From an uncultured archaeon (GTDB lineage Archaea > Asgardarchaeota > Jordiarchaeia > Jordiarchaeales > Jordiarchaeaceae): a stretch of 64,000 nucleotides of DNA. The stretch covers positions 31,912-95,911 of the forward strand of contig CAZECW010000187.1 of NCBI GenBank assembly GCA_964510585.1. Direction: 5' to 3'. The notes beneath the pieces are model-generated. The model made no database searches and was not told the origin of the DNA. It worked only from the letters and a program-made list of their open reading frames with translations. The position numbers and the translations under genes were made by a program. Below, in pieces: positions 5,799-60,444 of this stretch (position 1 is its first letter; every line of letters starts with the position of its first letter).

Positions 5799-6446
5799 AT
5801 GAAAATACTAAGTATCAATTTGGTGATATGTTTGGCGATATTCTTGGAAGGGAAATCGGAATGCCCTGTATGTGGAAAAAAGACACTTGAAAGTAGCTTT
5901 ACGGACTTGAACATTCCCTACTTTAGTGAGATATATTTAGTGAGGTTTCAATGTTCTTCGTGTGGGTATAAGGTAAGTGACTTTTTAAGTACACGTTACG
6001 GGAAACCAATCAGATGTACTTATAAAGTCAAAAATGAGAAAGAACTAACAGCCCGGGTAATCCGGGCTACCACGGGAACCATAAAAATCCCCGAACTAGG
6101 CACCACAATCGAACCAGGTCCAGCCTCCGAAGCGTATGTAACCAATGTTGAGGGCGTCATTTCCCGAATATTAGAAGTTGCAGAAACCGCAAGGGAATGG
6201 GCTGAAACCGATGAACAGAAAAGAAACAGCGACATTGCCATAGAAAAAATAAAAAAGGCAAAAACAGGGGAAATGCCCTTCACTCTGATACTGGAGGATC
6301 CCTTCGGAAACAGTATGATAGTAGCTAAAAACCAGTCAGAAGTAAAAGTTAAAGAACTAACAGTAGAAGAATTGCGAGATCTCAGAACTGGAGGCTTAAT
6401 ATTCTTTACATCCAGCGACTCGAACGAATCCACACAAGAAGACTGA
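5799..6446 (+). CDS. ZPR1-type zinc-finger domain protein
   Basis: 'CPVCG...NIPYF.EI....F.C..CGYK' matches the zf-ZPR1 architecture, followed by a β-rich domain. Confidence 0.55.
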   Translation: MKILSINLVICLAIFLEGKSECPVCGKKTLESSFTDLNIPYFSEIYLVRFQCSSCGYKVSDFLSTRYGKPIRCTYKVKNEKELTARVIRATTGTIKIPELGTTIEPGPASEAYVTNVEGVISRILEVAETAREWAETDEQKRNSDIAIEKIKKAKTGEMPFTLILEDPFGNSMIVAKNQSEVKVKELTVEELRDLRTGGLIFFTSSDSNESTQED

Positions 6447-12513: not shown

Positions 12514-14222
12514 AAAACCCACATTCCGCACCCCCTTTAACATAAATATATTTTTTCATAGACTGTTCCCAGAAGTGCAAGAATCTTCCGGTGAACCTCC
12601 CTGAGGTTAAGCACCGCAATAATCCTCTCCTCCCCCTCACCCCCCACTTCCAGCAACAGGTGTATCCCCTCAAACAATTGGAACACCCACCGCATGGTGG
12701 GCCGCTTGGTGGGCTTCCCCTTCTGATCCGGAATATGCTCCTCCCTTTCCTCCAGAACCCTGCGAAGCTTGTACTGAGCCACAGAGTAGACAAGCAGGCT
12801 GAGAACCATAATCATAACAAGACTCACGATCCTCTGAGGCTTCTTCAGAAACACCGAGGAGGCGAAGAAAAGGGGGTCTTTAAGGAACCGGAAGTCCCTC
12901 TCAACACTCTGCTGCCCCTTATACTCTTCCAGAAGCTGGTCGCTGTCCAGTTTCAGGTCGTTTGTGGCCACAATAAACTTGCCCCTCCTCCTCTCCTCAG
13001 CGTCCACCCGCTCCTCATCCACATCAAAGGAAGCCCTCACCCTGTAGACCCTTCTGGGGGGCTGCATGTTCCTAACCGGTCTACCCCTTCTTCCAGTCTT
13101 GTTGACCTCAACTATGTTCACTGAGCCTAATTTATGGTACTTCCACCCTTGAGCCGATTTTTGGACTGCGGAGAGGGCGTCCTCCGGGCAGTTGAATTCC
13201 CGGTTCCCCAGGTGCCACAGCTCCCTCTCAATCTTCTCCCCCTCCTTCTTTATGTTTCTTTTCAGGGTTTCCATCTCCCGCTGGTAGCCCTTCTCTGAGA
13301 AAACCACAAGCCACTTCTGCTCCACCCCACCATAATTGCTTCTGTACGCCTGGTGTTTGTAGCCCTCCAGGCTACTTTTAGCCATTTTTTCGGTTTCACA
13401 CTCCTGAATCAGCCTTTTTGCCTCCCAGATGTTCTCTGGGACGCGGCTTATCCACCTAACCAGGGGGGAGATTTCCCGGATGTTGTCATCACTGTAAAGT
13501 GCGGCGTCCATGACGTAGTACACTTCTTCGCCGTCTCCGGCGGCGAGTTCTTTTGAGAACTTTTTTATTACCTCTGGGAAGTGGTTTTTGTCGGAGGCGT
13601 TGCCACTCAGGACGTCGAGCCATATGGGGAGGTCTGACTGGGAGAGGGTGATGAGGGAGACTATGAACTGTTTTAGGTCGCTCCGCCCGTTCTTATTGGG
13701 GCGACCATAAGTTATGGTGATGGGGGTCATGTCTTCTTCTTGCTGTTGGTACTGGCCGTGGACGCTCATGGTGGTGGTGTCGAGGTGGAGGAATTTTTTC
13801 TCGACCCCCATGAGTTTCGCCACTTTGAGGGAGATGTGCATAAAGATCTGGGTGGGGTTGTTCTGGTACAGTCGGTCCAGGGCTCTTCCCAGGGTGTCGT
13901 CGTTGAAGTCTTCTGGTTTTAGGCCTTCCCTTATGAGGAGTTCTACGGGTTTGTTGTGCATGAATCCCGGGAAGAGGTAGAGGGGTTTGCTTGTGAATCC
14001 CAGGGCGTTTATGACCATGGCGAGGACTGCGTCGCCAGTTGTGACCTTCTGCTGGTCGTTTACTCCCACCATGCGGTTTATCTCTTCCACTAGGTGGATT
14101 TCCCTGCACACGCCGGAAACTATGCCCAGATGGTCGATTACTTTGCTGCGGTATTCCATGTCTCAACCATTGTTCTTGAAATTAATAAAAATATAAGTAA
14201 GGGTGCGGAAAGTGGGTTAAAA
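12514..14222 (-). mobile_element. insertion sequence, IS1634/IS4-family, about 1.7 kb, with imperfect terminal inverted repeats
   Basis: The left end reads 'AAAACCCACATTCCGCACCCCC' (12514-12540). The right end reads 'AAGGGTGCGGAAAGTGGGTT' (14199-14222), which is its reverse complement with 1-2 mismatches. The element encloses a single 540-aa DDE transposase gene. Confidence 0.75.
12537..14159 (-). CDS. IS1634/IS4-family DDE transposase
   Basis: It is 540 aa long. The N-terminal 'LGIVSGVCREI...GDAVLAMVINALGF' is typical of IS1634 transposases. The gene is flanked by terminal inverted repeats. Confidence 0.85.
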   Translation of the reverse strand: MEYRSKVIDHLGIVSGVCREIHLVEEINRMVGVNDQQKVTTGDAVLAMVINALGFTSKPLYLFPGFMHNKPVELLIREGLKPEDFNDDTLGRALDRLYQNNPTQIFMHISLKVAKLMGVEKKFLHLDTTTMSVHGQYQQQEEDMTPITITYGRPNKNGRSDLKQFIVSLITLSQSDLPIWLDVLSGNASDKNHFPEVIKKFSKELAAGDGEEVYYVMDAALYSDDNIREISPLVRWISRVPENIWEAKRLIQECETEKMAKSSLEGYKHQAYRSNYGGVEQKWLVVFSEKGYQREMETLKRNIKKEGEKIERELWHLGNREFNCPEDALSAVQKSAQGWKYHKLGSVNIVEVNKTGRRGRPVRNMQPPRRVYRVRASFDVDEERVDAEERRRGKFIVATNDLKLDSDQLLEEYKGQQSVERDFRFLKDPLFFASSVFLKKPQRIVSLVMIMVLSLLVYSVAQYKLRRVLEEREEHIPDQKGKPTKRPTMRWVFQLFEGIHLLLEVGGEGEERIIAVLNLREVHRKILALLGTVYEKIYLC

Positions 14223-19634: not shown

Positions 19635-20603
19635 ATGCAGGAGTTATTGGTTCCGCCCGATGTTCTAAAACTGCTCAAAAAGCAGAAATACCAGATTGTT
19701 GGGAGGCACTCTGCAGTTAAAAAATGCCGCTGGCTGCATAACAGCCTAGTTCAGGGCAGACACTGCTATAAGCAGGAATGGTACAACATCAAATCCCACA
19801 GATGCTTGCAGATGACCCCCACGGTAATCCACTGTACAAATCGCTGCCTTTCCTGCTGGCGTGTGGAGCCGGGAGACCTAGGATACCATTGGGACCAGTT
19901 AGCTTTTGGAGCGGACGTAGACGACCCAGAGGAAATAGTTGAAGGGTGCATCAAAGCTCAGAGAAAAATTTTATCCGGCTTTAATCCCTCTCACCACACT
20001 AAGGTCTCCTTGGAGAAGTGGAGGGAGGCTATGGAGCCCAAACATGTGGCGATAAGTTTGGCTGGTGAGCCAACCCTTTATCCCCGCCTGAGTGATTTGA
20101 TTGAAGAATTTCACAGTAGAAGAATGACCACCTTTCTTGTAACCAATGGAAATCTTCCCGAGGTACTCGCAGAGATTACAGAGCCCACACAACTGTATGT
20201 TTCCGTTTATGGGCCGAATAAAGAGGTTTACAATAGGGTTTGTCGTCCTCTCCTCAGCGATGCTTGGGAGAGACTGATGAGATCCTTGGAACTGTTAGGC
20301 AGTTTCAGTTGCCCCACGGTTATGCGGCTGACACTAACCAATGGTTTAAATTTTATAGACCCAGAGGGTTATGCTAAACTGGTTGATAGGGCCAATCCTA
20401 CATATGTGGAGTGTAAGAGCTATGTTTCTGTTGGTTACTCCCTCAACCGTGGTTTGAATGCGGATAATATGATTTGGGCTGCTGACGTGAGGAAATTTGC
20501 GGAGAAAATTGCTGAGTTTTCCGGGTACAACCTTATTGGCCATTCTGTTCCCAGCAGGGTCACACTTCTGAGCAGGTTGGAGAAGCCAATAAAGGTGGCT
20601 TAG
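19635..20603 (+). CDS. taw1: tRNA 4-demethylwyosine synthase (TYW1/Taw1, radical SAM)
   Basis: 'GRHSAVKKCRW' and the radical-SAM cluster 'CTNRCLSCWR' are characteristic of archaeal Taw1. Confidence 0.75.
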   Translation: MQELLVPPDVLKLLKKQKYQIVGRHSAVKKCRWLHNSLVQGRHCYKQEWYNIKSHRCLQMTPTVIHCTNRCLSCWRVEPGDLGYHWDQLAFGADVDDPEEIVEGCIKAQRKILSGFNPSHHTKVSLEKWREAMEPKHVAISLAGEPTLYPRLSDLIEEFHSRRMTTFLVTNGNLPEVLAEITEPTQLYVSVYGPNKEVYNRVCRPLLSDAWERLMRSLELLGSFSCPTVMRLTLTNGLNFIDPEGYAKLVDRANPTYVECKSYVSVGYSLNRGLNADNMIWAADVRKFAEKIAEFSGYNLIGHSVPSRVTLLSRLEKPIKVA

Positions 20604-32672: not shown

Positions 32673-32923
32673 AACAAATTCTCCTCCAACTCTTTAAAAC
32701 AAAAATTCAGTCACACCGTTTAAGACTTACCTGTGAGCAAGTTTTCTAAAACATTCCTCCAACAGAATATACAATACTCCCCCTTTTTTAGGTGTTTTTC
32801 TCCCTTTGGGTGAGTTTGGCTCTTCAAGGTCTTTCCGATTCTAAGGCCCATAATGAATGGTAAGGCAAAAATGCTTTCCATATTCCCTACAGACTAAGTC
32901 ACACCTATTTTTCTCCACAAAAA

Positions 32924-32931
32924 ATTTATGT
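32924..32931 (+). promoter_or_regulatory. candidate archaeal TATA box (TTTATGTA) with upstream A-rich BRE-like tract for the tRNA gene
   Basis: The sequence CACAAAAAATTTATGTA lies about 40 bp upstream of the tRNA 5' end. Confidence 0.35.
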
Positions 32932-32971
32932 ACCCAAACGCTTAATTCTCTAACCGTCCAAAAAAATAACA

Positions 32972-33112
32972 GCGGGCTGCTAGCTCAGAAGAATGGATTC
33001 ATATTTATTCGTCTGAGCAATTAGGTAGAGCGCCAGGCTCTTAACTTGGTGGTCGCGGGAAACCATAAGAGGCGTACTCTGGTTCGCGAATTCGAATCCC
33101 GTGCAGCCCGCC
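32972..33112 (+). tRNA. tRNA-Lys (anticodon CUU) interrupted by two non-canonical introns (D-loop region and 53/54 T-arm)
   Basis: Manual fold: acceptor GGGCUGC/GCAGCCC; D-stem GCUC/GAGC; anticodon stem CCAGG/CUUGG with loop CUCUUAA; T-stem GCGGG/CCCGU; T-loop UUCGAAU. Inserts of about 33 nt and about 31 nt disrupt the D-loop and the T-stem/loop junction. Confidence 0.65.
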
Positions 33113-33170
33113 TAAACATTTAATTCCACCACATGTCTTTTTTTAAATTTCTCGAAGGAGATATGGTTTT

Positions 33171-34235
33171 TTGGCGGATCTAATTCCTTGTCTAGTAATC
33201 TCTAAAAAGAGGGCACAGGAGGCCAAAATTGTTCTCTCGGAGCTAGGTCTCCTTGACAATAGGATGCGTGTTTCAAGTGATTCCGGAAATATTTTTTGGC
33301 CTCTGGTTAGGGAGATTTCAGAGAGTGAGCGTTCCATTTTGGAAAGCAGGCTGGGTGTTTTTGAGTTGGCTTACACTGAGCCCAAGCTTAGGATGAAGCG
33401 GCCAAAGAGTATTCTGGAGGAGTTATACGAAAAACTTTCTCCCAGCCAGTTGGCTTCACTGCCCCACTCTTATGATGTGGTGGGCGACATTGCAGTGCTT
33501 GAGATTCCGCAGGAGCTTTCTGATAAAGGCTCCCTTATAGGTAATGCAGTTTTAAATGTGCACAAAAATGTGAGGGTGGTTTTGGCTAAGGCTGGGAGGG
33601 TAAATGGTGTAACCCGCGTTCGAAAGTTTATTCATCTTGCGGGAGAGAATAGGACAACTACGCTGCATAGGGAGAATGGCTGCGTTTTCCGGGTGGATTT
33701 ATCCTCGGCTTATTTTAGTCCACGCCTAGTGACTGAGCATGCCCGCGTAGCAAGACAGGTTTCTCCCGGCGAAGTGGTGGTGGATCTCTTTGCGGGTGTA
33801 GGTCCCTTCTCCATTCAAATCGCTAAAAGGGTGGATGCGCACGTGTATGCCATTGATATTAACGAGTCGGCAGTGGAATTGTTGAAGCAGAATATTCATT
33901 TGAATAAGGTTGAGGGTAGAGTTTTCCCAATCTTGGGCGACGCTCGAAAAGTGGTGGAAGAGAGGCTTTCTTCCAAAGCGGATCGGGTTATTATGAATCT
34001 CCCAGGCGAGGCTGAGAATTACATTGATGTTGCATGCCGGGCAATTAAGTCGGGGGGAGGAGTAATTCATTACTACCAGTTCTCTACATCCGAGTCTGCA
34101 GACGAGGTGATTGAATCCCTAACCAGAGGTGTTGAGGCAAGTTCCCGAAATGTGGTTAAAATTCTCGGCTTTAGGAAGGTGCGGCCAAGCGCACCACGAG
34201 AGTGGCAAGTAGTTGTGGATGCACAAATCAAATAA
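33171..34235 (+). CDS. trm5: tRNA (guanine37-N1)-methyltransferase, Trm5/Taw2 family
   Basis: 'VVDLFAGVGPFSIQIA' and 'NLPG' are Trm5/TYW2 class-I methyltransferase motifs. The fold resembles a PACE N-terminal domain. Confidence 0.75.
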   Translation: MADLIPCLVISKKRAQEAKIVLSELGLLDNRMRVSSDSGNIFWPLVREISESERSILESRLGVFELAYTEPKLRMKRPKSILEELYEKLSPSQLASLPHSYDVVGDIAVLEIPQELSDKGSLIGNAVLNVHKNVRVVLAKAGRVNGVTRVRKFIHLAGENRTTTLHRENGCVFRVDLSSAYFSPRLVTEHARVARQVSPGEVVVDLFAGVGPFSIQIAKRVDAHVYAIDINESAVELLKQNIHLNKVEGRVFPILGDARKVVEERLSSKADRVIMNLPGEAENYIDVACRAIKSGGGVIHYYQFSTSESADEVIESLTRGVEASSRNVVKILGFRKVRPSAPREWQVVVDAQIK

Positions 34236-34846: not shown

Positions 34847-35646
34847 TTGTATGACGCGCAATTAAATGTTAAGAGAGGATGCAAAAAAGAGTTGCGTGAG
34901 TGGAGATTTTTGGCAAAAAAGGACCTATTGTTTGAAAAGAAAAGACTTCTGGAAGAGTTGAAACGCTCGGGGTTTGTTACTCGGGAAAACGTGATGCGTG
35001 CGTTCCTAGAGGTTCCCAGGGAAGAGTTTGTGCCCCAGAATCTCAGGGACAAGGCCTATGCTGATCATCCTCTTCCCATTCCTGGAGGTCAGACTATATC
35101 TGCGCCACACAAAGAGCACATATTATGCTTTTTGGGCGTGACATGGTTGTAATGATGTGTGACGTACTAGAATTGGAAGAGGGTATGAAGGTACTAGAGG
35201 TGGGCACGGGGTCCGGCTACCACGCAGCACTATGCGCCGAAATAGTGGCGCCCACCGGCTCTAACGCTAAAGGCCATGTTTACACTATTGAACGGATTCC
35301 AGAATTGGTAGAATTCGCCATAGATAATTTGAGGAGGGCGGGGTACCTTGACCGGGTAACCGTCATCACTGGGGATGGTTCGGAAGGATACAAGGAAATG
35401 GCTCCCTACGATGCTATACTCGTCACAGCCGCAGCTCCCAGAGTTCCCCAACCCCTAGTTGACCAACTAAAAATAGGGGGGAGAATGGCCATTCCCCTAG
35501 GAAGCCTCTTTATGTACCAGGAGCTGGTAGTAATTGAAAAAGTGGAGGAGGGCAAAACCAAAAAACAAAGATTCGGCTCAGTAGCCTTCGTCCCCCTACT
35601 GGGAAAATGGGGATTCAGCACGAATTCCAGCTCTTTATCTCTCTAA
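34847..35646 (+). pseudogene. pcm: protein-L-isoaspartate O-methyltransferase (PCMT), reading frame interrupted at a T5 run (two overlapping ORFs, 34847..35152 and 35125..35646)
   Basis: The upstream ORF ends '...GGQTISAPHKEHILCFLGVTWL*'. The downstream ORF in the +1 frame begins 'MLFGRDMVVMMCDVLELEEGMKVLEVGTGSGY' (PCMT motif I). One extra T in 35129-35133 would fuse them. Confidence 0.7.
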
Positions 35647-42982: not shown

Positions 42983-43339
42983 ATGTTTGAGTACAAAATG
43001 GCAATTTTGGTACGAACCGATTTAAAAATGAGTAAGGGAAAAATCGCGGCACAGGTGGCGCATGCAGCGGTTTCAGCCTCAGAGGAAGCTAGGAAGAGGA
43101 ATCCGGACTGGTGGGGGAAATGGATGAATGAGGGCCAGAAGAAGGTTGTGGTTAAGGTAAAATCTTTGGATGAACTTAAAAGGTATGAGTACCAAGCGAT
43201 TAGGAATAAGATTCCCCATTCTTTAATAATTGATAGGGGTCTCACGGAAATACCGCCTGGCACTGTTACTGCTCTTGCTATCGGACCGGCGCCAGAATCA
43301 CTCATAGACAGTATTACGGGCGGGCTACCTCTGCTTTAG
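42983..43339 (+). CDS. pth2: peptidyl-tRNA hydrolase, archaeal type (Pth2)
   Basis: 'KMAILVRTDLKMSKGKIAAQVAHAAV' matches the canonical Pth2. Confidence 0.85.
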   Translation: MFEYKMAILVRTDLKMSKGKIAAQVAHAAVSASEEARKRNPDWWGKWMNEGQKKVVVKVKSLDELKRYEYQAIRNKIPHSLIIDRGLTEIPPGTVTALAIGPAPESLIDSITGGLPLL

Positions 43340-43356: not shown

Positions 43357-44730
43357 ATGAGTGAACTAGAAAAAATCATTGGAATAGAGTTTTTCGCTAC
43401 CAAGTCTAAAGGAATAGGAGGAGAACTCAGGAAGAGATGGGAGGACTTCGTAGTGGAGGAAATAACTCCCCAAAAGGAGATACTTTACGCTCTAGGCCCC
43501 AATTCCGAAACAAGCAGACCGGATGGTGAGCATGGAAATGGAGGAGAAACTGTGGGGGATTATACTATTTTTACTCTTGAGAGGCACGGTTTGTATAATA
43601 CATTTGAGGCTTTGGATAAAATTGCTCATAGTTTGAGGATTGGAATAAAAAGGTTTTCCTATGCGGGGGTGAAGGATAAAAGGGCGGTTACAACCCAAAG
43701 GGTTAGTGTTTGGAGGGTTGACCCAGAGAGACTGAAAAAACTGAATATTAAGGGACTTTACATAAGGGATGTGCGTAGGGGCGCGGAAGCTGTTAAGCTT
43801 GGAGATTTATGGGGCAACCACTTTCGTATCACTGTTAGAGGTATAAACTTGGAAAAGTCGGAGGTGGAGCTAATAGTTAAGAAAACCTGTGATGAGATAG
43901 CGGATTTGGGTGGTGTCCCCAACTTTTTTGGCTATCAAAGATTTGGGCTTCGGAGACCCTTGTCTCACCTTGTGGGAACTAAGCTGGTTAAGAACGAGTT
44001 TAGGGAGGCTGCAATGCTATTTTTAGCAAAAGCTTATCCCCTTGAAGGAATGGATGCCCAAGAGGCGCGTAATTATTTGTATGAGACTGGAGACTTTGCT
44101 GGAGCTTTGAAAAAGTTTCCCAAGCGCCTAACTTTTGAGAGAACAATGTTAAAGCATTTGTCTCAACATCCCAATGATATTCTGGGCGCCTTTAGGCGGA
44201 TTCAAAGAGGTCTACTTATGATGTTTATACATGCCACGCAGTCTTACCTATTTAATAGAATTCTTAGTCTAAGGCATAAATGCGGTCTCCCACTAAACAG
44301 TGCTGTGGTGGGGGATATTGTGGCTCCAGTTCAGGGTGCTTCGCCGAGAGATTATATGCTGGTCACGGAAGAAAACATTTCAAAAATAAACGAGCAGGTT
44401 AAATCTGGAACATTGGGCGTTGCAATACCTTTGATAGGGTATGATATAACTCTTCCCATGTTTCAGCCAGGGGAGCTGGTAGAAAAAATTTTACAGGAAG
44501 AGGGTTTAAGTCCAAGCATGTTTAGACTTCAATCTATACCTGAGATAAGTTCAAAAGGAGGATACCGACTAATACTCTCAAAAGTATCTGACTTGAAAGT
44601 GTTGGACATAAGTGAAGATGAGTATAGTGAAAACGCGATTAAACTTACAATTTCCTTCTCGCTGTCCAAGGGCAGTTACGCCACAATGGTGCTCAGAGAA
44701 TTTATGAAAACAGAACCCACAAAGTATTAG
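43357..44730 (+). CDS. truD: tRNA pseudouridine(13) synthase TruD/Pus7-like
   Basis: The N-terminal 'GIGGELRKRWEDFVVEEI' and 'GYQRFG' motifs of the TruD family are present. Confidence 0.75.
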   Translation: MSELEKIIGIEFFATKSKGIGGELRKRWEDFVVEEITPQKEILYALGPNSETSRPDGEHGNGGETVGDYTIFTLERHGLYNTFEALDKIAHSLRIGIKRFSYAGVKDKRAVTTQRVSVWRVDPERLKKLNIKGLYIRDVRRGAEAVKLGDLWGNHFRITVRGINLEKSEVELIVKKTCDEIADLGGVPNFFGYQRFGLRRPLSHLVGTKLVKNEFREAAMLFLAKAYPLEGMDAQEARNYLYETGDFAGALKKFPKRLTFERTMLKHLSQHPNDILGAFRRIQRGLLMMFIHATQSYLFNRILSLRHKCGLPLNSAVVGDIVAPVQGASPRDYMLVTEENISKINEQVKSGTLGVAIPLIGYDITLPMFQPGELVEKILQEEGLSPSMFRLQSIPEISSKGGYRLILSKVSDLKVLDISEDEYSENAIKLTISFSLSKGSYATMVLREFMKTEPTKY

Positions 44731-44826: not shown

Positions 44827-46137
44827 ATGTCAGAATGTTCCGAGGATATTCATAAGACACACTTCACCAGTGAGATAGGTCCAGACCTTGATGGAAAAAT
44901 CGTGGTTTTAGCTGGATGGGTAGAAAGCATCCGAAAATTGGGTGGAATAAAATTCATCATTTTGAGGGATAAGGAGGGGCGTTCACAGATCACCGTCCCC
45001 AAGAGCAACTCAAAGGTTTTCGATGAGGTAGACAAATTAGGCAAGGAATACGTTATCCTGGTGCGGGGAAAGGTGAGAAAGATCGAAAAGGCGCCCCAAG
45101 GAGCTGAGGTAATCCCCGAAGAAATAAAAATACTAAACACGTCAATCTCTCCTCTTCCATTAGACCCCTCAGGTAAGGTTGACGCGAATCTTGATACCCA
45201 GCTAGACAATAGGGTGCTAGACCTTAGGCGTCCAGAAAAAACGGCTATTTTTATTATTCGCCACGAGGCAAGTAAGGCTATCAGAGAGTTCCTAATCAAG
45301 AGGGGCTTTATAGAAATTAACACCCCCAAAATCATTGCCTCCGCTTCTGAGGGTGGAGCCGACCTCTTCCCTATCTCATACTACGAGAAGGAGGCGTTCC
45401 TAAGCCAATCAGCTCAACTTTACAAAGAGCAGATGTCTAGTGTTTTTGAGAAGGTTTTCGAGATCGCCCCCTGTTACCGCGCCGAGTTAAGCCGCACAGT
45501 CAGACACCTAAGCGAAGTTTACACAGTTGATGTGGAAGTAGCCTTTAACAACTATTTAGACGTAATGGAACTCCTCGAAGAACTAATTTCCCACGTGTTT
45601 AAACATATAAAGAAAAAATGTTCTGAAGAATTAAAAACGCTAAATCGGGAATTGCCAGTTCTCAAAACTCCTTTTCCCCGCTACACCTATACTGAAATTG
45701 TAGAAAAGCTACAGGCTGAGGGAATCGAAATGAACTGGGGAGAGGACATCTCTACACAGGCTTACCGCAAACTTGGAGAAATATTGAAGGGACTATACTT
45801 CATAGTGGATTGGCCCACTGCTGGAAAGCCCTTCTACATACTGCCCCGAAAAGACAACCCCGAAATATGTGAATCATTTGATCTCATGTATGAGTGGCTG
45901 GAGCTGGCCTCTGGAGGAACAAGGATACACAAAAAAGACATGCTTATTGAGAGGCTAAAGGAGCAGAAACTGAATCCTGAATCGTTCGCATTCCACCTAA
46001 AAACATACGATTGGGGAATGCCCCCACATGCAGGATGGGGATTGGGATTAGACCGACTAGTTATGGTTCTCACTGGAGCGGAGAATATAAGAGACTGCGT
46101 CTTATACCCCCGGGACCGAGACCGACTCACGCCCTAA
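44827..46137 (+). CDS. aspS: aspartyl-tRNA synthetase (archaeal type)
   Basis: An OB anticodon-binding N-terminal domain is followed by class-II motifs ('FRAE', 'GGGLGLDRLVM'). Length is about 436 aa. Confidence 0.85.
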   Translation: MSECSEDIHKTHFTSEIGPDLDGKIVVLAGWVESIRKLGGIKFIILRDKEGRSQITVPKSNSKVFDEVDKLGKEYVILVRGKVRKIEKAPQGAEVIPEEIKILNTSISPLPLDPSGKVDANLDTQLDNRVLDLRRPEKTAIFIIRHEASKAIREFLIKRGFIEINTPKIIASASEGGADLFPISYYEKEAFLSQSAQLYKEQMSSVFEKVFEIAPCYRAELSRTVRHLSEVYTVDVEVAFNNYLDVMELLEELISHVFKHIKKKCSEELKTLNRELPVLKTPFPRYTYTEIVEKLQAEGIEMNWGEDISTQAYRKLGEILKGLYFIVDWPTAGKPFYILPRKDNPEICESFDLMYEWLELASGGTRIHKKDMLIERLKEQKLNPESFAFHLKTYDWGMPPHAGWGLGLDRLVMVLTGAENIRDCVLYPRDRDRLTP

Positions 46138-47544: not shown

Positions 47545-49599
47545 ATGGTTAATATGATTAAGGCGTTCCACATTCTTCTGAAGTCCGGTGAGCCCCTTTT
47601 CCACAGGGTTTATGGTAAGGAGCAGGTTGATGAATCGCTTTTTTCGGGGTTTCTAGGCGCTGTTTACAACTTTGCTCAGGAACTGGGCCATGGAGATATT
47701 AAGACTGTGGAGGTTGGTGATGCAAGGTTCGTATGCGAAGTTTCTGAGAACTTGATTTTCGTGGCTGTTGTTGGAAAAGACGACGATGAACAAGAACTAA
47801 AAAATTTTCTAGGCTTTGCTTCTAGAGCCTTTGTTAACCGCTTCAGAGAGGAACTTAAAACATGGCGTGGAAATGTGTCTATCTTTAGGGAATTCACCCA
47901 AGAGTTAGATCACTTAGTGGAAGATTATCAAACGAAGCGCCTCCCCGGTAAGGTTAAACTGGTGCCTTTTCTAAGAGATTCTTCTGGGGGATCAAGTTAC
48001 CCCTTTGATGTGGAAATAGCCTCTGTTTTCTGTTTACTGGAAGATATAAGAGATCGTGGAGGGGGCTTTCTCTGGAAAAAGCCAGAGGAGGCGTTGAGGG
48101 GTATTGTAAGAGTTTTATGGCCTTTTTGGATAGTGCCTTTTGAGGATGGAGACCGGGGAGTTATAGTGGATGCTATGAGTATGGCGCCCCTCCAAATACG
48201 AACCAAGCGTTACTCGGCTTTAGATAAAGCTGATAATTTTCTCAAAATAAATAGTGTAGATGTGTTTGTAAATTCTCTTGAGGATCTAATATTGGATTTA
48301 GAAAGTGAGAAATCGGAGGAATTTCCACTATATGGATTTTTAGTTCCAGAGTTAGTTAAAGATTTGGAGATCAGCTTTTCTCAAGCCAGAGTGGGTGAGA
48401 CTAAGGATTATGTTGTAGTCCGCCCCCTTGTAACTCGCACCCAGACGGTTGAGAATAAAACTGTTTTTATGAAGTTAATTCAAGATTTGGAAACAAGTTC
48501 TCAAAGACTAATGGAAAAGGAAAATTTCTTAACATTAATAACTGAGAAGTGGCTTAAGGTAATAAATGAAAAGATGGTGGAGACCCGGGAAAGTTATAGA
48601 GTCAAAATAGAGGAAACAGTTAAGGATGTCGAGAAGCAGATTGGAATACTCTTACAGCTCAGAGAGGAGGAACTGAAAAAACTTGATGCTTGGTTTGCTG
48701 AAGCAGATAAGAATCTTATACTGGAAATAAAAGAATTGTTTGGTCCACTGATTGAGGTTTTAGAAGATGTGGCGCTGAAATCCACCGAGGAGATAGGAAA
48801 GTCAATCGATGAAAAAATTAGTGTGTTGGAAGTTATAGAGGGGAGAATTCAAAAATTAGCCAACGTTTCGGAGTATATGAATAAGACCAAGAAATTGGTG
48901 GAGAACATTTCTAAGAGTATAAAGAAAATTGATTCAACTATTGAGAAAATAAACAAGAAAATAGAAGTTGACAAAAATTCCATTCTGAAAGACTTTGACA
49001 GAAAAATCATGGAACAAAACAGTCGAGTAGACTCGCTAAAAGAAGAAGCAAAAGATGTCCTCAGCAAACAACAGTTTTTAATGGATAGAATTACATCTAA
49101 ACTCCAAGAATTAAGGCAGCTGATTCAACGTGAACGCAAAGAAGTCGACCGGCTTTTAAAATTGTTAACTTCATTGATAATTAAATTGCCGGACAAAATA
49201 TTTTCTCCATCTCTATTTTATATCCCCCTATATATTGGAAAATTCGAAGATACGAAGCAAGAAAGATTTTTTGTGGTACCCCCATTAGTTCTGCTAAAAT
49301 CGAATGAAACTATTAGTTGTGACTTTGGACAGAAAACACTTCCCCTGGATCTACCTAACCCTGCGTTTCTAGAAGCTGTAAAACGAAAGGCTGAAACACT
49401 AATTAATGATAGTAAGGAGCTAAAATTAGAAATTCTAAAGGGGTTTAAAAAATCAAATCTAATAAATTCGCAACAAATAGAGACAAGCGTTTACGAGGGC
49501 TTAAACAATCTATTACGCCTCAATATTCTTACTGAGAAGGACTTTCAAATTTTGAAAGCTAGAGCCAAGGAGGTTTTTAGGACGGAGGAGAGAGTTTGA
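47545..49599 (+). CDS. large coiled-coil protein with N-terminal Roadblock/longin-like α/β domain
   Basis: The N-terminal roughly 110 aa has a βααββα pattern ('IKAFHILLKSGEPLF...FLGAVYNFAQELG...IKTVEVGDARFVCEVSENLIFVAVVG'). The remainder is heptad-rich and K/E-rich. Confidence 0.5.
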   Translation: MVNMIKAFHILLKSGEPLFHRVYGKEQVDESLFSGFLGAVYNFAQELGHGDIKTVEVGDARFVCEVSENLIFVAVVGKDDDEQELKNFLGFASRAFVNRFREELKTWRGNVSIFREFTQELDHLVEDYQTKRLPGKVKLVPFLRDSSGGSSYPFDVEIASVFCLLEDIRDRGGGFLWKKPEEALRGIVRVLWPFWIVPFEDGDRGVIVDAMSMAPLQIRTKRYSALDKADNFLKINSVDVFVNSLEDLILDLESEKSEEFPLYGFLVPELVKDLEISFSQARVGETKDYVVVRPLVTRTQTVENKTVFMKLIQDLETSSQRLMEKENFLTLITEKWLKVINEKMVETRESYRVKIEETVKDVEKQIGILLQLREEELKKLDAWFAEADKNLILEIKELFGPLIEVLEDVALKSTEEIGKSIDEKISVLEVIEGRIQKLANVSEYMNKTKKLVENISKSIKKIDSTIEKINKKIEVDKNSILKDFDRKIMEQNSRVDSLKEEAKDVLSKQQFLMDRITSKLQELRQLIQRERKEVDRLLKLLTSLIIKLPDKIFSPSLFYIPLYIGKFEDTKQERFFVVPPLVLLKSNETISCDFGQKTLPLDLPNPAFLEAVKRKAETLINDSKELKLEILKGFKKSNLINSQQIETSVYEGLNNLLRLNILTEKDFQILKARAKEVFRTEERV

Positions 49600-59808: not shown

Positions 59809-60444
59809 TTACTCCTTTTCTTTGGGCTTCTTTGAACTCTCCAATTCCCTTTTCAGGTCTTCTAGCTCAGATGCCAAGGAAGATTTTTCTGTTATTATGT
59901 CCCCCTGCGGTACTTTGGGTTCCTCTATGCCCTCCAATGCAATTTCCGCCTCTAGACGGTTTAACTCACTTTCAATATCTCCTGCCTCTTCGACGCCCAT
60001 TTCGGAAGGAGTTGCCAAAATGTCTGAGCTTCTAGAAATATCGCGCATAGCTTCCTCTTGCTCTATAATCATTTCGAGTATCTTTTCTGAGTTGACGAGT
60101 TTTCGGGCGTTTTCAAGCTCTGCTCCGGCGAGTTCAAATGCTTCCTTGAGTTCTAAGACATCATAGGCTTCTTCTATGGCGATGATTCTCGTTTCAAGGT
60201 TCTCAATAAATGCGGTGTACTTGCCTAGAAAATTCTGGTATCTTCTGAATTTTCTGAGGGCGAATGTTGCCATGCCTTTGTTGCCCATTTTTAGATACTG
60301 TTTAGCCTTGTTTCTTTCCTCGATTGCCTTCCTCTCGTAGTTTCGTGAACGCAGAGTTAGCCTATTTATACTAGTTCTTAGCTGTGCGATTATCTCGTCC
60401 TTGTTTTTGGGCCTTTTTCCAAAGAGTATATCTTTAATACTCAT
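59809..60444 (-). CDS. ESCRT-III / Snf7-family protein
   Basis: The α1-α2 hairpin 'AIEERNKAKQYLKMGNKGMATFALRKFRRYQNFL...LETRIIAIEEA' is the Snf7 signature. The C-terminus is acidic with a MIM1-like 'LEDLKRELE'. Confidence 0.7.
   Translation of the reverse strand: MSIKDILFGKRPKNKDEIIAQLRTSINRLTLRSRNYERKAIEERNKAKQYLKMGNKGMATFALRKFRRYQNFLGKYTAFIENLETRIIAIEEAYDVLELKEAFELAGAELENARKLVNSEKILEMIIEQEEAMRDISRSSDILATPSEMGVEEAGDIESELNRLEAEIALEGIEEPKVPQGDIITEKSSLASELEDLKRELESSKKPKEKE

Follow-up and report, generated by a model that had tools for sequence, protein, structure and literature searches.

Does a stretch of DNA in which standard searches find no RNA gene nevertheless carry a functional tRNA gene and, if so, how would the inserts that interrupt it be removed? 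The question is raised by positions 32972-33112 of the 64-kb stretch analysed here (the window), which a preliminary description had taken for a tRNA-Lys(CUU) gene with two introns at non-canonical positions. ARAGORN, with or without its -i intron option, finds no tRNA in the raw window, and Rfam gives no match when the whole window is searched at the gathering threshold or at E ≤ 1, and no tRNA when the locus itself is searched at E ≤ 10; no Rfam family was credibly detected by standard search of the 64 kb. No open reading frame of at least 80 aa overlaps the locus, and a crude acceptor-plus-T-loop scan of the window for further hidden tRNAs left this locus as the only credible one. Our reading, which draws on the sequence of the locus and of its relatives, is that positions 32974-33110 (+) are very probably a functional gene for the tRNA-Lys(CUU) of a Freyarchaeia/Jordarchaeia archaeon, with introns at tRNA positions 15/16 and 53/54.

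The gene is made up of three exons and two short introns, all on the plus strand. Exon 1 (32974-32988, tRNA positions 1-15) holds the acceptor 5′ strand GGGCUGC, U8 and A9, the D-stem 5′ strand GCUC, A14 and G15, and is followed by intron 1 (32989-33020, 32 nt), which lies in the D-loop at position 15/16. Exon 2 (33021-33059, positions 16-53) supplies the remainder of the D-loop and D-stem (UUAGGUA, GAGC), a G, the anticodon arm (CCAGG, CUCUUAA, CUUGG), the variable loop UGGUC and the T-stem 5′ strand GCGGG; its anticodon loop CUCUUAA is uninterrupted, as had been proposed, and contains the anticodon CUU at 33040-33042. Intron 2 (33060-33090, 31 nt) separates the T-stem from the T-loop at position 53/54, and exon 3 (33091-33110, positions 54-73) contributes the T-loop UUCGAAU, the T-stem 3′ strand CCCGU, the acceptor 3′ strand GCAGCCC and the discriminator G73. 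The preliminary description had given the coordinates of the second insert exactly; it had rightly placed the first one in the D-loop but began it 3 nt too early (about 32986-33019, instead of a start at 32989), and its gene span, correctly located, took in an extra leader GC and trailer CC. The CC 3′ of the discriminator (33111-33112, +) is a partial CCA, the A of which is not encoded. The leader GC (32972-32973) can pair with G73 and C33111 (C74), which extends the acceptor helix of the precursor by 2 bp to 9 bp.

When both inserts are removed in silico, ARAGORN calls a 74-nt tRNA-Lys(ctt) with all four stems (acceptor, D, anticodon and T), followed by the genomic CC, in agreement with the identity and the stems originally assigned to the locus. 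The spliced cloverleaf has stems of 7, 4, 5 and 5 bp, a 7-nt anticodon loop and a 7-nt T-loop, and the spliced sequence GGGCUGCUAGCUCAGUUAGGUAGAGCGCCAGGCUCUUAACUUGGUGGUCGCGGGUUCGAAUCCCGUGCAGCCCG contains the conserved U8, A14, G15:C48, G18 G19, A21, U33, G53, U54 U55 C56, A58 and C61. Removal of one insert alone leaves ARAGORN with nothing or with an inferior parse that has a 3-bp T-stem. A covariance search had been put forward as the test that could overturn the assignment, and its outcome depends on the model: Rfam has no match, and a custom model built from six bacterial tRNA-Lys genes, fetched by accident in our pattern scans and including no window sequence, has its best match in the window at this very locus when both strands of the 64 kb are searched with filters off. 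The match (32977-33062, 15.9 bits, E 0.024) comprises the 5′ two-thirds of the gene only; the alignment covers UAGCUCAG, GAGC, the anticodon arm with CUCUUAA, and GGUC, puts 39 nt at the 6 D-loop positions of the model and loses the T arm exactly where intron 2 begins. As this model recognises a tRNA-Lys carrying an insert in its D-loop, and since two insertions of ~30 nt are costly, we read the Rfam miss as a failure of the Rfam model on the inserts and not as evidence against a tRNA.

Elements that would be needed for transcription can be proposed on both sides of the gene. A candidate promoter upstream (32915-32949, +) consists of a purine-rich stretch, TTTATGTA (32925-32932) and TTAATT (32942-32947), candidate BRE/TATA elements by the archaeal promoter consensus, and the region is almost invariant in four orthologous loci and still recognisable in a more distant one (L014). 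Downstream, a run of seven T (33138-33144, +), conserved in orthologues, possibly serves as a transcription stop for the tRNA, and the adjoining TTTTTTAAATTT may also provide a TATA box for the Trm5/TYW2-like gene, the start of which is at 33171.

The boundaries of both inserts follow the bulge-helix-bulge (BHB) rule, according to which the cut on each strand falls two bases 3′ of a 4-bp helix, in one of two 3-nt bulges. The compatibility with a BHB substrate that had been suggested for the D-loop insert holds for the junctions of both inserts, each of which has 4 Watson-Crick central pairs between two 3-nt bulges. In intron 1, the central helix is formed by GCUC 32983-32986 (tRNA positions 10-13) and GAGC 33015-33018, with bulges AG↓A (32987-32989) and AA↓U (33019-33021; arrows mark splice sites), an inner helix of 3 bp (AGA 32990-32992 and UCU 33012-33014) and an outer helix of 3 bp (32980-32982 and 33022-33024). 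The CUCAGA/UCUGAG helix pointed out earlier is therefore real but does not lie wholly inside the insert: it is the D-stem 5′ strand, A14, G15 and the first intron base that pair with the 3′ part of the intron. In intron 2, CGCG 33054-33057 (tRNA positions C48-G51) faces CGCG 33085-33088, the bulges are GG↓A (33058-33060) and AA↓U (33089-33091), the inner helix AACC 33061-33064/GGUU 33081-33084 comprises 4-5 bp, as AACC(A)/(U)GGUU, and a distal hairpin is formed by AGAG 33068-33071 and CUCU 33077-33080. As an outer helix is lacking, this intron counts as a relaxed BHB, with a relaxed motif at its 3′ site. Counted as 4 Watson-Crick central pairs, 3-nt bulges and an inner helix of at least 3 bp, the motif arises at only 2.5e-4 of the site/length combinations in the window, and yet it is found at both tRNA junctions. 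Moreover, A14, G15 pairing with C48, a 9-nt D-loop, G53-C61 and U54 are obtained with these boundaries only, and a shift of either intron by one base, as read from the sequence, alters the spliced product. A C/D-box guide RNA in intron 1 was considered and rejected on inspection, as there is a CUGA only, no C box, and 32 nt are too short. No match to the 3′ exon that could represent an attachment site of a viral or integrative element was found in viral contigs.

The same geometry bears on the possibility that the inserts are removed or tolerated without a BHB endonuclease, be it by self-splicing, by trans-splicing of tRNA halves or as parts of an unspliced functional RNA. We regard this as very improbable: the junctions obey the BHB rule exactly, all parts of the gene lie together on one strand, preceded by a single conserved promoter-like region, and inserts of 28-34 nt are far below the size of group I or II ribozymes. 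For the window itself, a group I or II self-splicing intron was rejected on the same grounds, with inserts of 31-32 nt against a ribozyme core of hundreds of nucleotides and no Rfam intron matches.

By sequence identity and gene content, the window belongs to the Freyarchaeia/Jordarchaeia, i.e., to an Asgard archaeon. In 8-kb alignments it is 90.5% and 86.7% identical to the Jordarchaeia isolates QZM_A3 and RPF2, and over 1.9 kb it is 87.3% identical to the Freyarchaeota SQRJ_82. When 185,579 species genomes were scanned with the two-gap exon pattern, the archaeal matches were three contigs only, two from Candidatus Jordarchaeia and one from Candidatus Freyarchaeota; three bacterial matches proved to be tRNA-Lys genes with chance flanks, and a metagenome scan with the same pattern returned bacterial tRNA-Lys genes only, likewise matched by chance flanks. 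A JGI metagenome contig, which is an independent assembly, is 99.97% identical to the window and carries an identical tRNA gene, so the inserts are no assembly artefact. The neighbouring genes include archaeal ones for diphthine synthase, NikR, a copper ATPase, a Trm5/TYW2-like methyltransferase, FEN1 and CDC48, as well as translin, together with eukaryote-like signature proteins typical of Asgard genomes: Snf7/ESCRT-III (59809-60444, -), a FUZ/MON1/HPS1-type longin-domain protein (47545-49599, +) and ZPR1 (5799-6446, +). The Trm5/TYW2-type methyltransferase gene (33171-34235) lies 60 nt downstream of the tRNA, and further tRNA-related genes in the window encode a radical-SAM wyosine-formation enzyme (19635-20603), TruD (43357-44730) and the peptidyl-tRNA hydrolase PTH2 (42983-43339). 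The only GC-rich patch of the window (0.50 vs ~0.40) is a transposase ORF (12537-14159, -) with DUF4277 and DDE_Tnp_1 domains, probably an insertion sequence.

Is the gene functional, or is it a tRNA pseudogene in decay, which has picked up two insertions and no longer gives rise to a functional tRNA? The silence of the standard detectors at the locus would fit decay, as would the fact that the BHB folds differ from the computed minimum free energy (MFE) fold: the BHB conformer is ~12 kcal/mol less stable than the latter, which retains the T-stem and in which an unbroken GCUCAGA/UCUGAGC helix takes in the 5′ bulge of intron 1, so that its bases are paired. The orthologous loci speak strongly against it. 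Among four loci, the window and the three closest Jordarchaeia/Freyarchaeota MAG loci, the exons vary at 0 of 74 positions, whereas 17 of 75 and 30 of 75 columns vary in the flanks of the tRNA gene (23-40%). The introns of these loci vary at 12 of 63 columns, and none of the 12 falls among the 30 helix-forming positions (hypergeometric P 1.3e-4, a value to be read with the reservation that adjacent indel columns are not independent), i.e., the helix-forming positions are selectively conserved. The three closest relatives taken alone show no covariation, all pairs being invariant, and it is seen only when more distant loci are added, which were reached by following the neighbouring PCMT gene. 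The resulting 11 distinct orthologues, including the window, are all spliced in silico to a tRNA-Lys(ctt) according to ARAGORN. Across the six distinct spliced sequences, 126 of 126 cloverleaf cells are paired (100%) with 4 compensatory pairs, the changes residing in the acceptor and T stems, and this level is matched by 0 of 500 shuffles, slid controls reaching 30-49%. The helices of the 53/54 intron, which could be compared in 7 orthologues only, are 98.8% paired with two compensatory pairs (C-G/U-A/U-G, and A-U/U-A). Since the tRNA also lies upstream of Trm5 in all relatives, the adjacency being conserved, we give the pseudogene very little chance and retain the functional gene as our reading.

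The relatives differ in the set of introns that the gene carries. The 15/16 intron is present in all 11 distinct orthologues, while those at 37/38, 53/54 and 59/60 come and go, with two to three introns per gene. The combination of the window, 15/16 and 53/54 without 37/38 or 59/60, is shared by L004, L007 and L008; L012, L016/L017, L020/L021 and L018 have 15/16 and 37/38 and lack the other two; L013, L014 and L022 have 15/16, 37/38 and 53/54 and lack 59/60; and L023 has 15/16, 53/54 and 59/60 and lacks 37/38. In L018, which has no 53/54 intron, the uninterrupted sequence GCGGGUUCGAAG (GCGGG↓TTCGAAG) shows the junction that we predict for the spliced gene of the window. When placed at 59/60, the third insert of L023 has a perfect UUCG/CGAA central helix; a placement at 61-63 was rejected, as there is no BHB there. 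In several relatives, intron 1 has a mismatch at its fourth central pair (G10-N). In L012, L016/L017 and L020/L021, the T-loop reads UCCGAUU, with C for the near-universal U at position 55, alongside the T-stem GUGGG/CCCAC.

We give almost no credence to the remaining parse, in which the gene would have, beyond the D-loop insert, a single 33-nt intron near the canonical site, at 38/39, where UCUGG would form the 3′ side of the anticodon stem and GCGAA the 5′ side of the T-stem: although ARAGORN -i reports it once intron 1 alone is removed, its T-stem has 3 bp, its variable region is shortened, no BHB can form because CUCU cannot pair with GGCG, and the true 37/38 introns of L012-L022 add to or replace the 53/54 insert and have the same exon sequence ACUUGGUGGUCG on their 3′ side. 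The parse had suggested that a local duplication of the segment from the anticodon stem to the T-stem gave rise to intron 2; this idea was rejected, the similarity between intron 2 and the exon being not significant (633 of 2000 shuffles), which also counts against the parse itself.

We infer both the splicing of this tRNA and the enzymes that carry it out, and the route that we propose for the two-intron gene is as follows. The precursor transcript would comprise ~137 nt plus leader and trailer, and in it the 3′ part of each intron would pair with the exon bases just upstream of the intron's own 5′ splice site. The splicing endonuclease, presumably of the broad-specificity (αβ)2 type with an L1 loop, would cut each bulge between its second and third base. 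An RtcB-type ligase would then join the exons and probably circularise the introns, and the ends would be finished by RNase P, 3′ end processing enzymes and the CCA-adding enzyme. No splicing endonuclease or ligase gene was found within the 64-kb window. Asgard archaea have been reported to possess an (αβ)2 EndA, the L1 loop of which confers broad specificity, and for the sister lineage Atabeyarchaeia at least two K01170 endonuclease genes and RtcB are listed.

How unusual is such a gene? In one Freyarchaeia and two Atabeyarchaeia genomes, 92-95% of the tRNA genes bear introns (Valentin-Alvarado et al. 2024, PMC11291895); these introns are often non-canonical and more than half of the genes have several of them. 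The authors of that work treat Jordarchaeia as a later name for Freyarchaeia. Given their report, the tRNA-Lys of the window is ordinary for its lineage, and the expectation voiced at the outset that a multi-intron tRNA would mark the lineage is borne out, the window falling into the Freyarchaeia/Jordarchaeia, whose intron-rich tRNA genes were already published. The Lys-CTT gene of the published complete Freyarchaeia genome has a 28-nt intron from nt 16 and a 19-nt intron at ~37/38 (PMC11291895). It belongs to the same class and is the same gene, with a first intron that likewise starts at nt 16, but its second intron is 19 nt long and located at ~37/38 by the table coordinates, in contrast to the 31 nt at 53/54 in the window; its architecture is that of L012, L016 and L020. 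The genus-level lineage of the window, near QZM_A3, RPF2 and SQRJ_82, is outside the three genomes tabulated there, and the variation of the intron set between lineages is a modest new addition to the known intron-rich tRNA sets.

Positions 53/54 and 59/60 are known non-canonical intron sites in Crenarchaeota (Yoshihisa 2014, PMC4090602). The multi-intron tRNA genes of Thermoproteales (Sugahara et al. 2007/2008), to the extent that this review describes them, share with the gene of the window short non-canonical BHB introns, several per gene, and also relaxed motifs, which in Thermoproteales, in the same account, need a heterotetrameric endonuclease; Thermoproteales belong to the TACK superphylum, whereas the window is from an Asgard archaeon. 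The ectopic multiple tRNA introns of Cyanidioschyzon merolae and of nucleomorphs likewise occur in the D and T arms and depend on BHB for recognition (PMC4090602), but those genes are eukaryotic nuclear ones cut by the Sen complex, and several are permuted, unlike the gene of the window.

A second interrupted gene lies 2 kb downstream of the tRNA. The gene for PCMT (protein-L-isoaspartate O-methyltransferase; 34847-35646, +) appears as a pair of overlapping ORFs (34847-35152 and 35125-35646) both in the window and in the JGI annotation. A candidate intron of 32 nt (35109-35140, +) would separate exons 34847-35108 and 35141-35646. Its central helix is CGCC 35103-35106/GGCG 35135-35138 with bulges AC↓A and UG↓A, followed by a 9-bp inner helix (35110-35118/35126-35134) and a 7-nt loop (35119-35125), and there is an outer helix of 2 bp. 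With the insert removed, the mRNA reads GCG CCA C↓AC AUG (SAPH↓M), and both the frame and the invariant GQTISAPH↓M motif are restored. The spliced product of 255 aa gives a single continuous match to Pfam PCMT (positions 3-208 of 210, 234 bits), the unspliced halves matching positions 3-62 and 61-208, and it aligns without gaps through GQTISAPHM with full-length PCMTs of Hel-, Thor- and Lokiarchaeota, Bathyarchaeota and Methanomethylicia. All relatives in the protein database that are more than 76% identical are C-terminal fragments of 158-167 aa, while homologues of 64% identity or less are full length, and the database holds no full-length relative above 64%.

The insert is found at the same place in 11 of 11 distinct Freyarchaeia/Jordarchaeia loci and is absent from other Asgard PCMTs. 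Its length is 31-32 nt, its loop is hypervariable, and 97% of its helix cells are paired in the 11 sequences, with one compensatory pair (GC in six, AU in three). The two ORFs could alternatively be joined by programmed frameshifting, which was rejected on two counts: the bridging peptide would be unconserved inside an invariant motif, and the relative frame differs between lineages, +1 in L022 with its 31-nt insert and +2 in the lineages with 32 nt, which excludes a conserved programmed frameshift. Equally strong BHB motifs occur only twice elsewhere in the window, and neither of them restores a frame; a BHB-like motif at 45284-45315 (+), with 4 Watson-Crick pairs and a 9-bp inner helix, is taken as a chance match, since it lies inside the intact coding region for motif 1 of a class II aaRS and its removal breaks the frame. 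We thus propose the PCMT insert as a candidate BHB intron of a pre-mRNA in this Asgard lineage. We found no prior report of a PCMT intron in the searchable literature, in which the only confirmed case of BHB splicing of an archaeal pre-mRNA is that of cbf5 in Crenarchaeota. The cbf5 intron (Watanabe 2002; Yokobori 2009, PMC2738675) measures 16-44 bp, compared with 31-32 nt for PCMT, and the two are alike in that they interrupt a conserved motif of a protein-coding gene with BHB-like junctions and lead to mis-annotation as two ORFs or a frameshift (PMC2738675). They differ in that the splicing of cbf5 has been demonstrated experimentally in Crenarchaeota, whereas for PCMT, another gene in an Asgard lineage, it is we who infer it.

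Taken together, we consider it likely that BHB splicing in the Freyarchaeia/Jordarchaeia extends beyond tRNA, through a clade-wide PCMT intron, and that the tRNA-Lys(CUU) intron set is in flux among close relatives. The tRNA gene shows that essential genes of this lineage escape routine annotation, as neither ARAGORN nor Rfam sees a tRNA in 64 kb, and pipelines without BHB-aware steps will under-call its RNA genes and split some of its protein genes. The tRNA-Lys(CUU) gene adds a genus-level example to the intron-rich Asgard tRNA sets, and the gain and loss of introns among the four sites used in this one gene, across short evolutionary distances, bears on how BHB introns spread. If our reading is true, the lineage would be a natural system for following the spread of protein-spliced introns in archaeal relatives of eukaryotes. 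The candidate mRNA intron of PCMT, if true, would be more surprising and novel than the tRNA introns themselves. The eukaryotic analogue of such an event is the non-conventional splicing of HAC1/XBP1, in which RtcB joins the exons in animals. If the PCMT intron is indeed spliced, mRNA splicing dependent on the tRNA machinery would occur in the archaeal group closest to eukaryotes.
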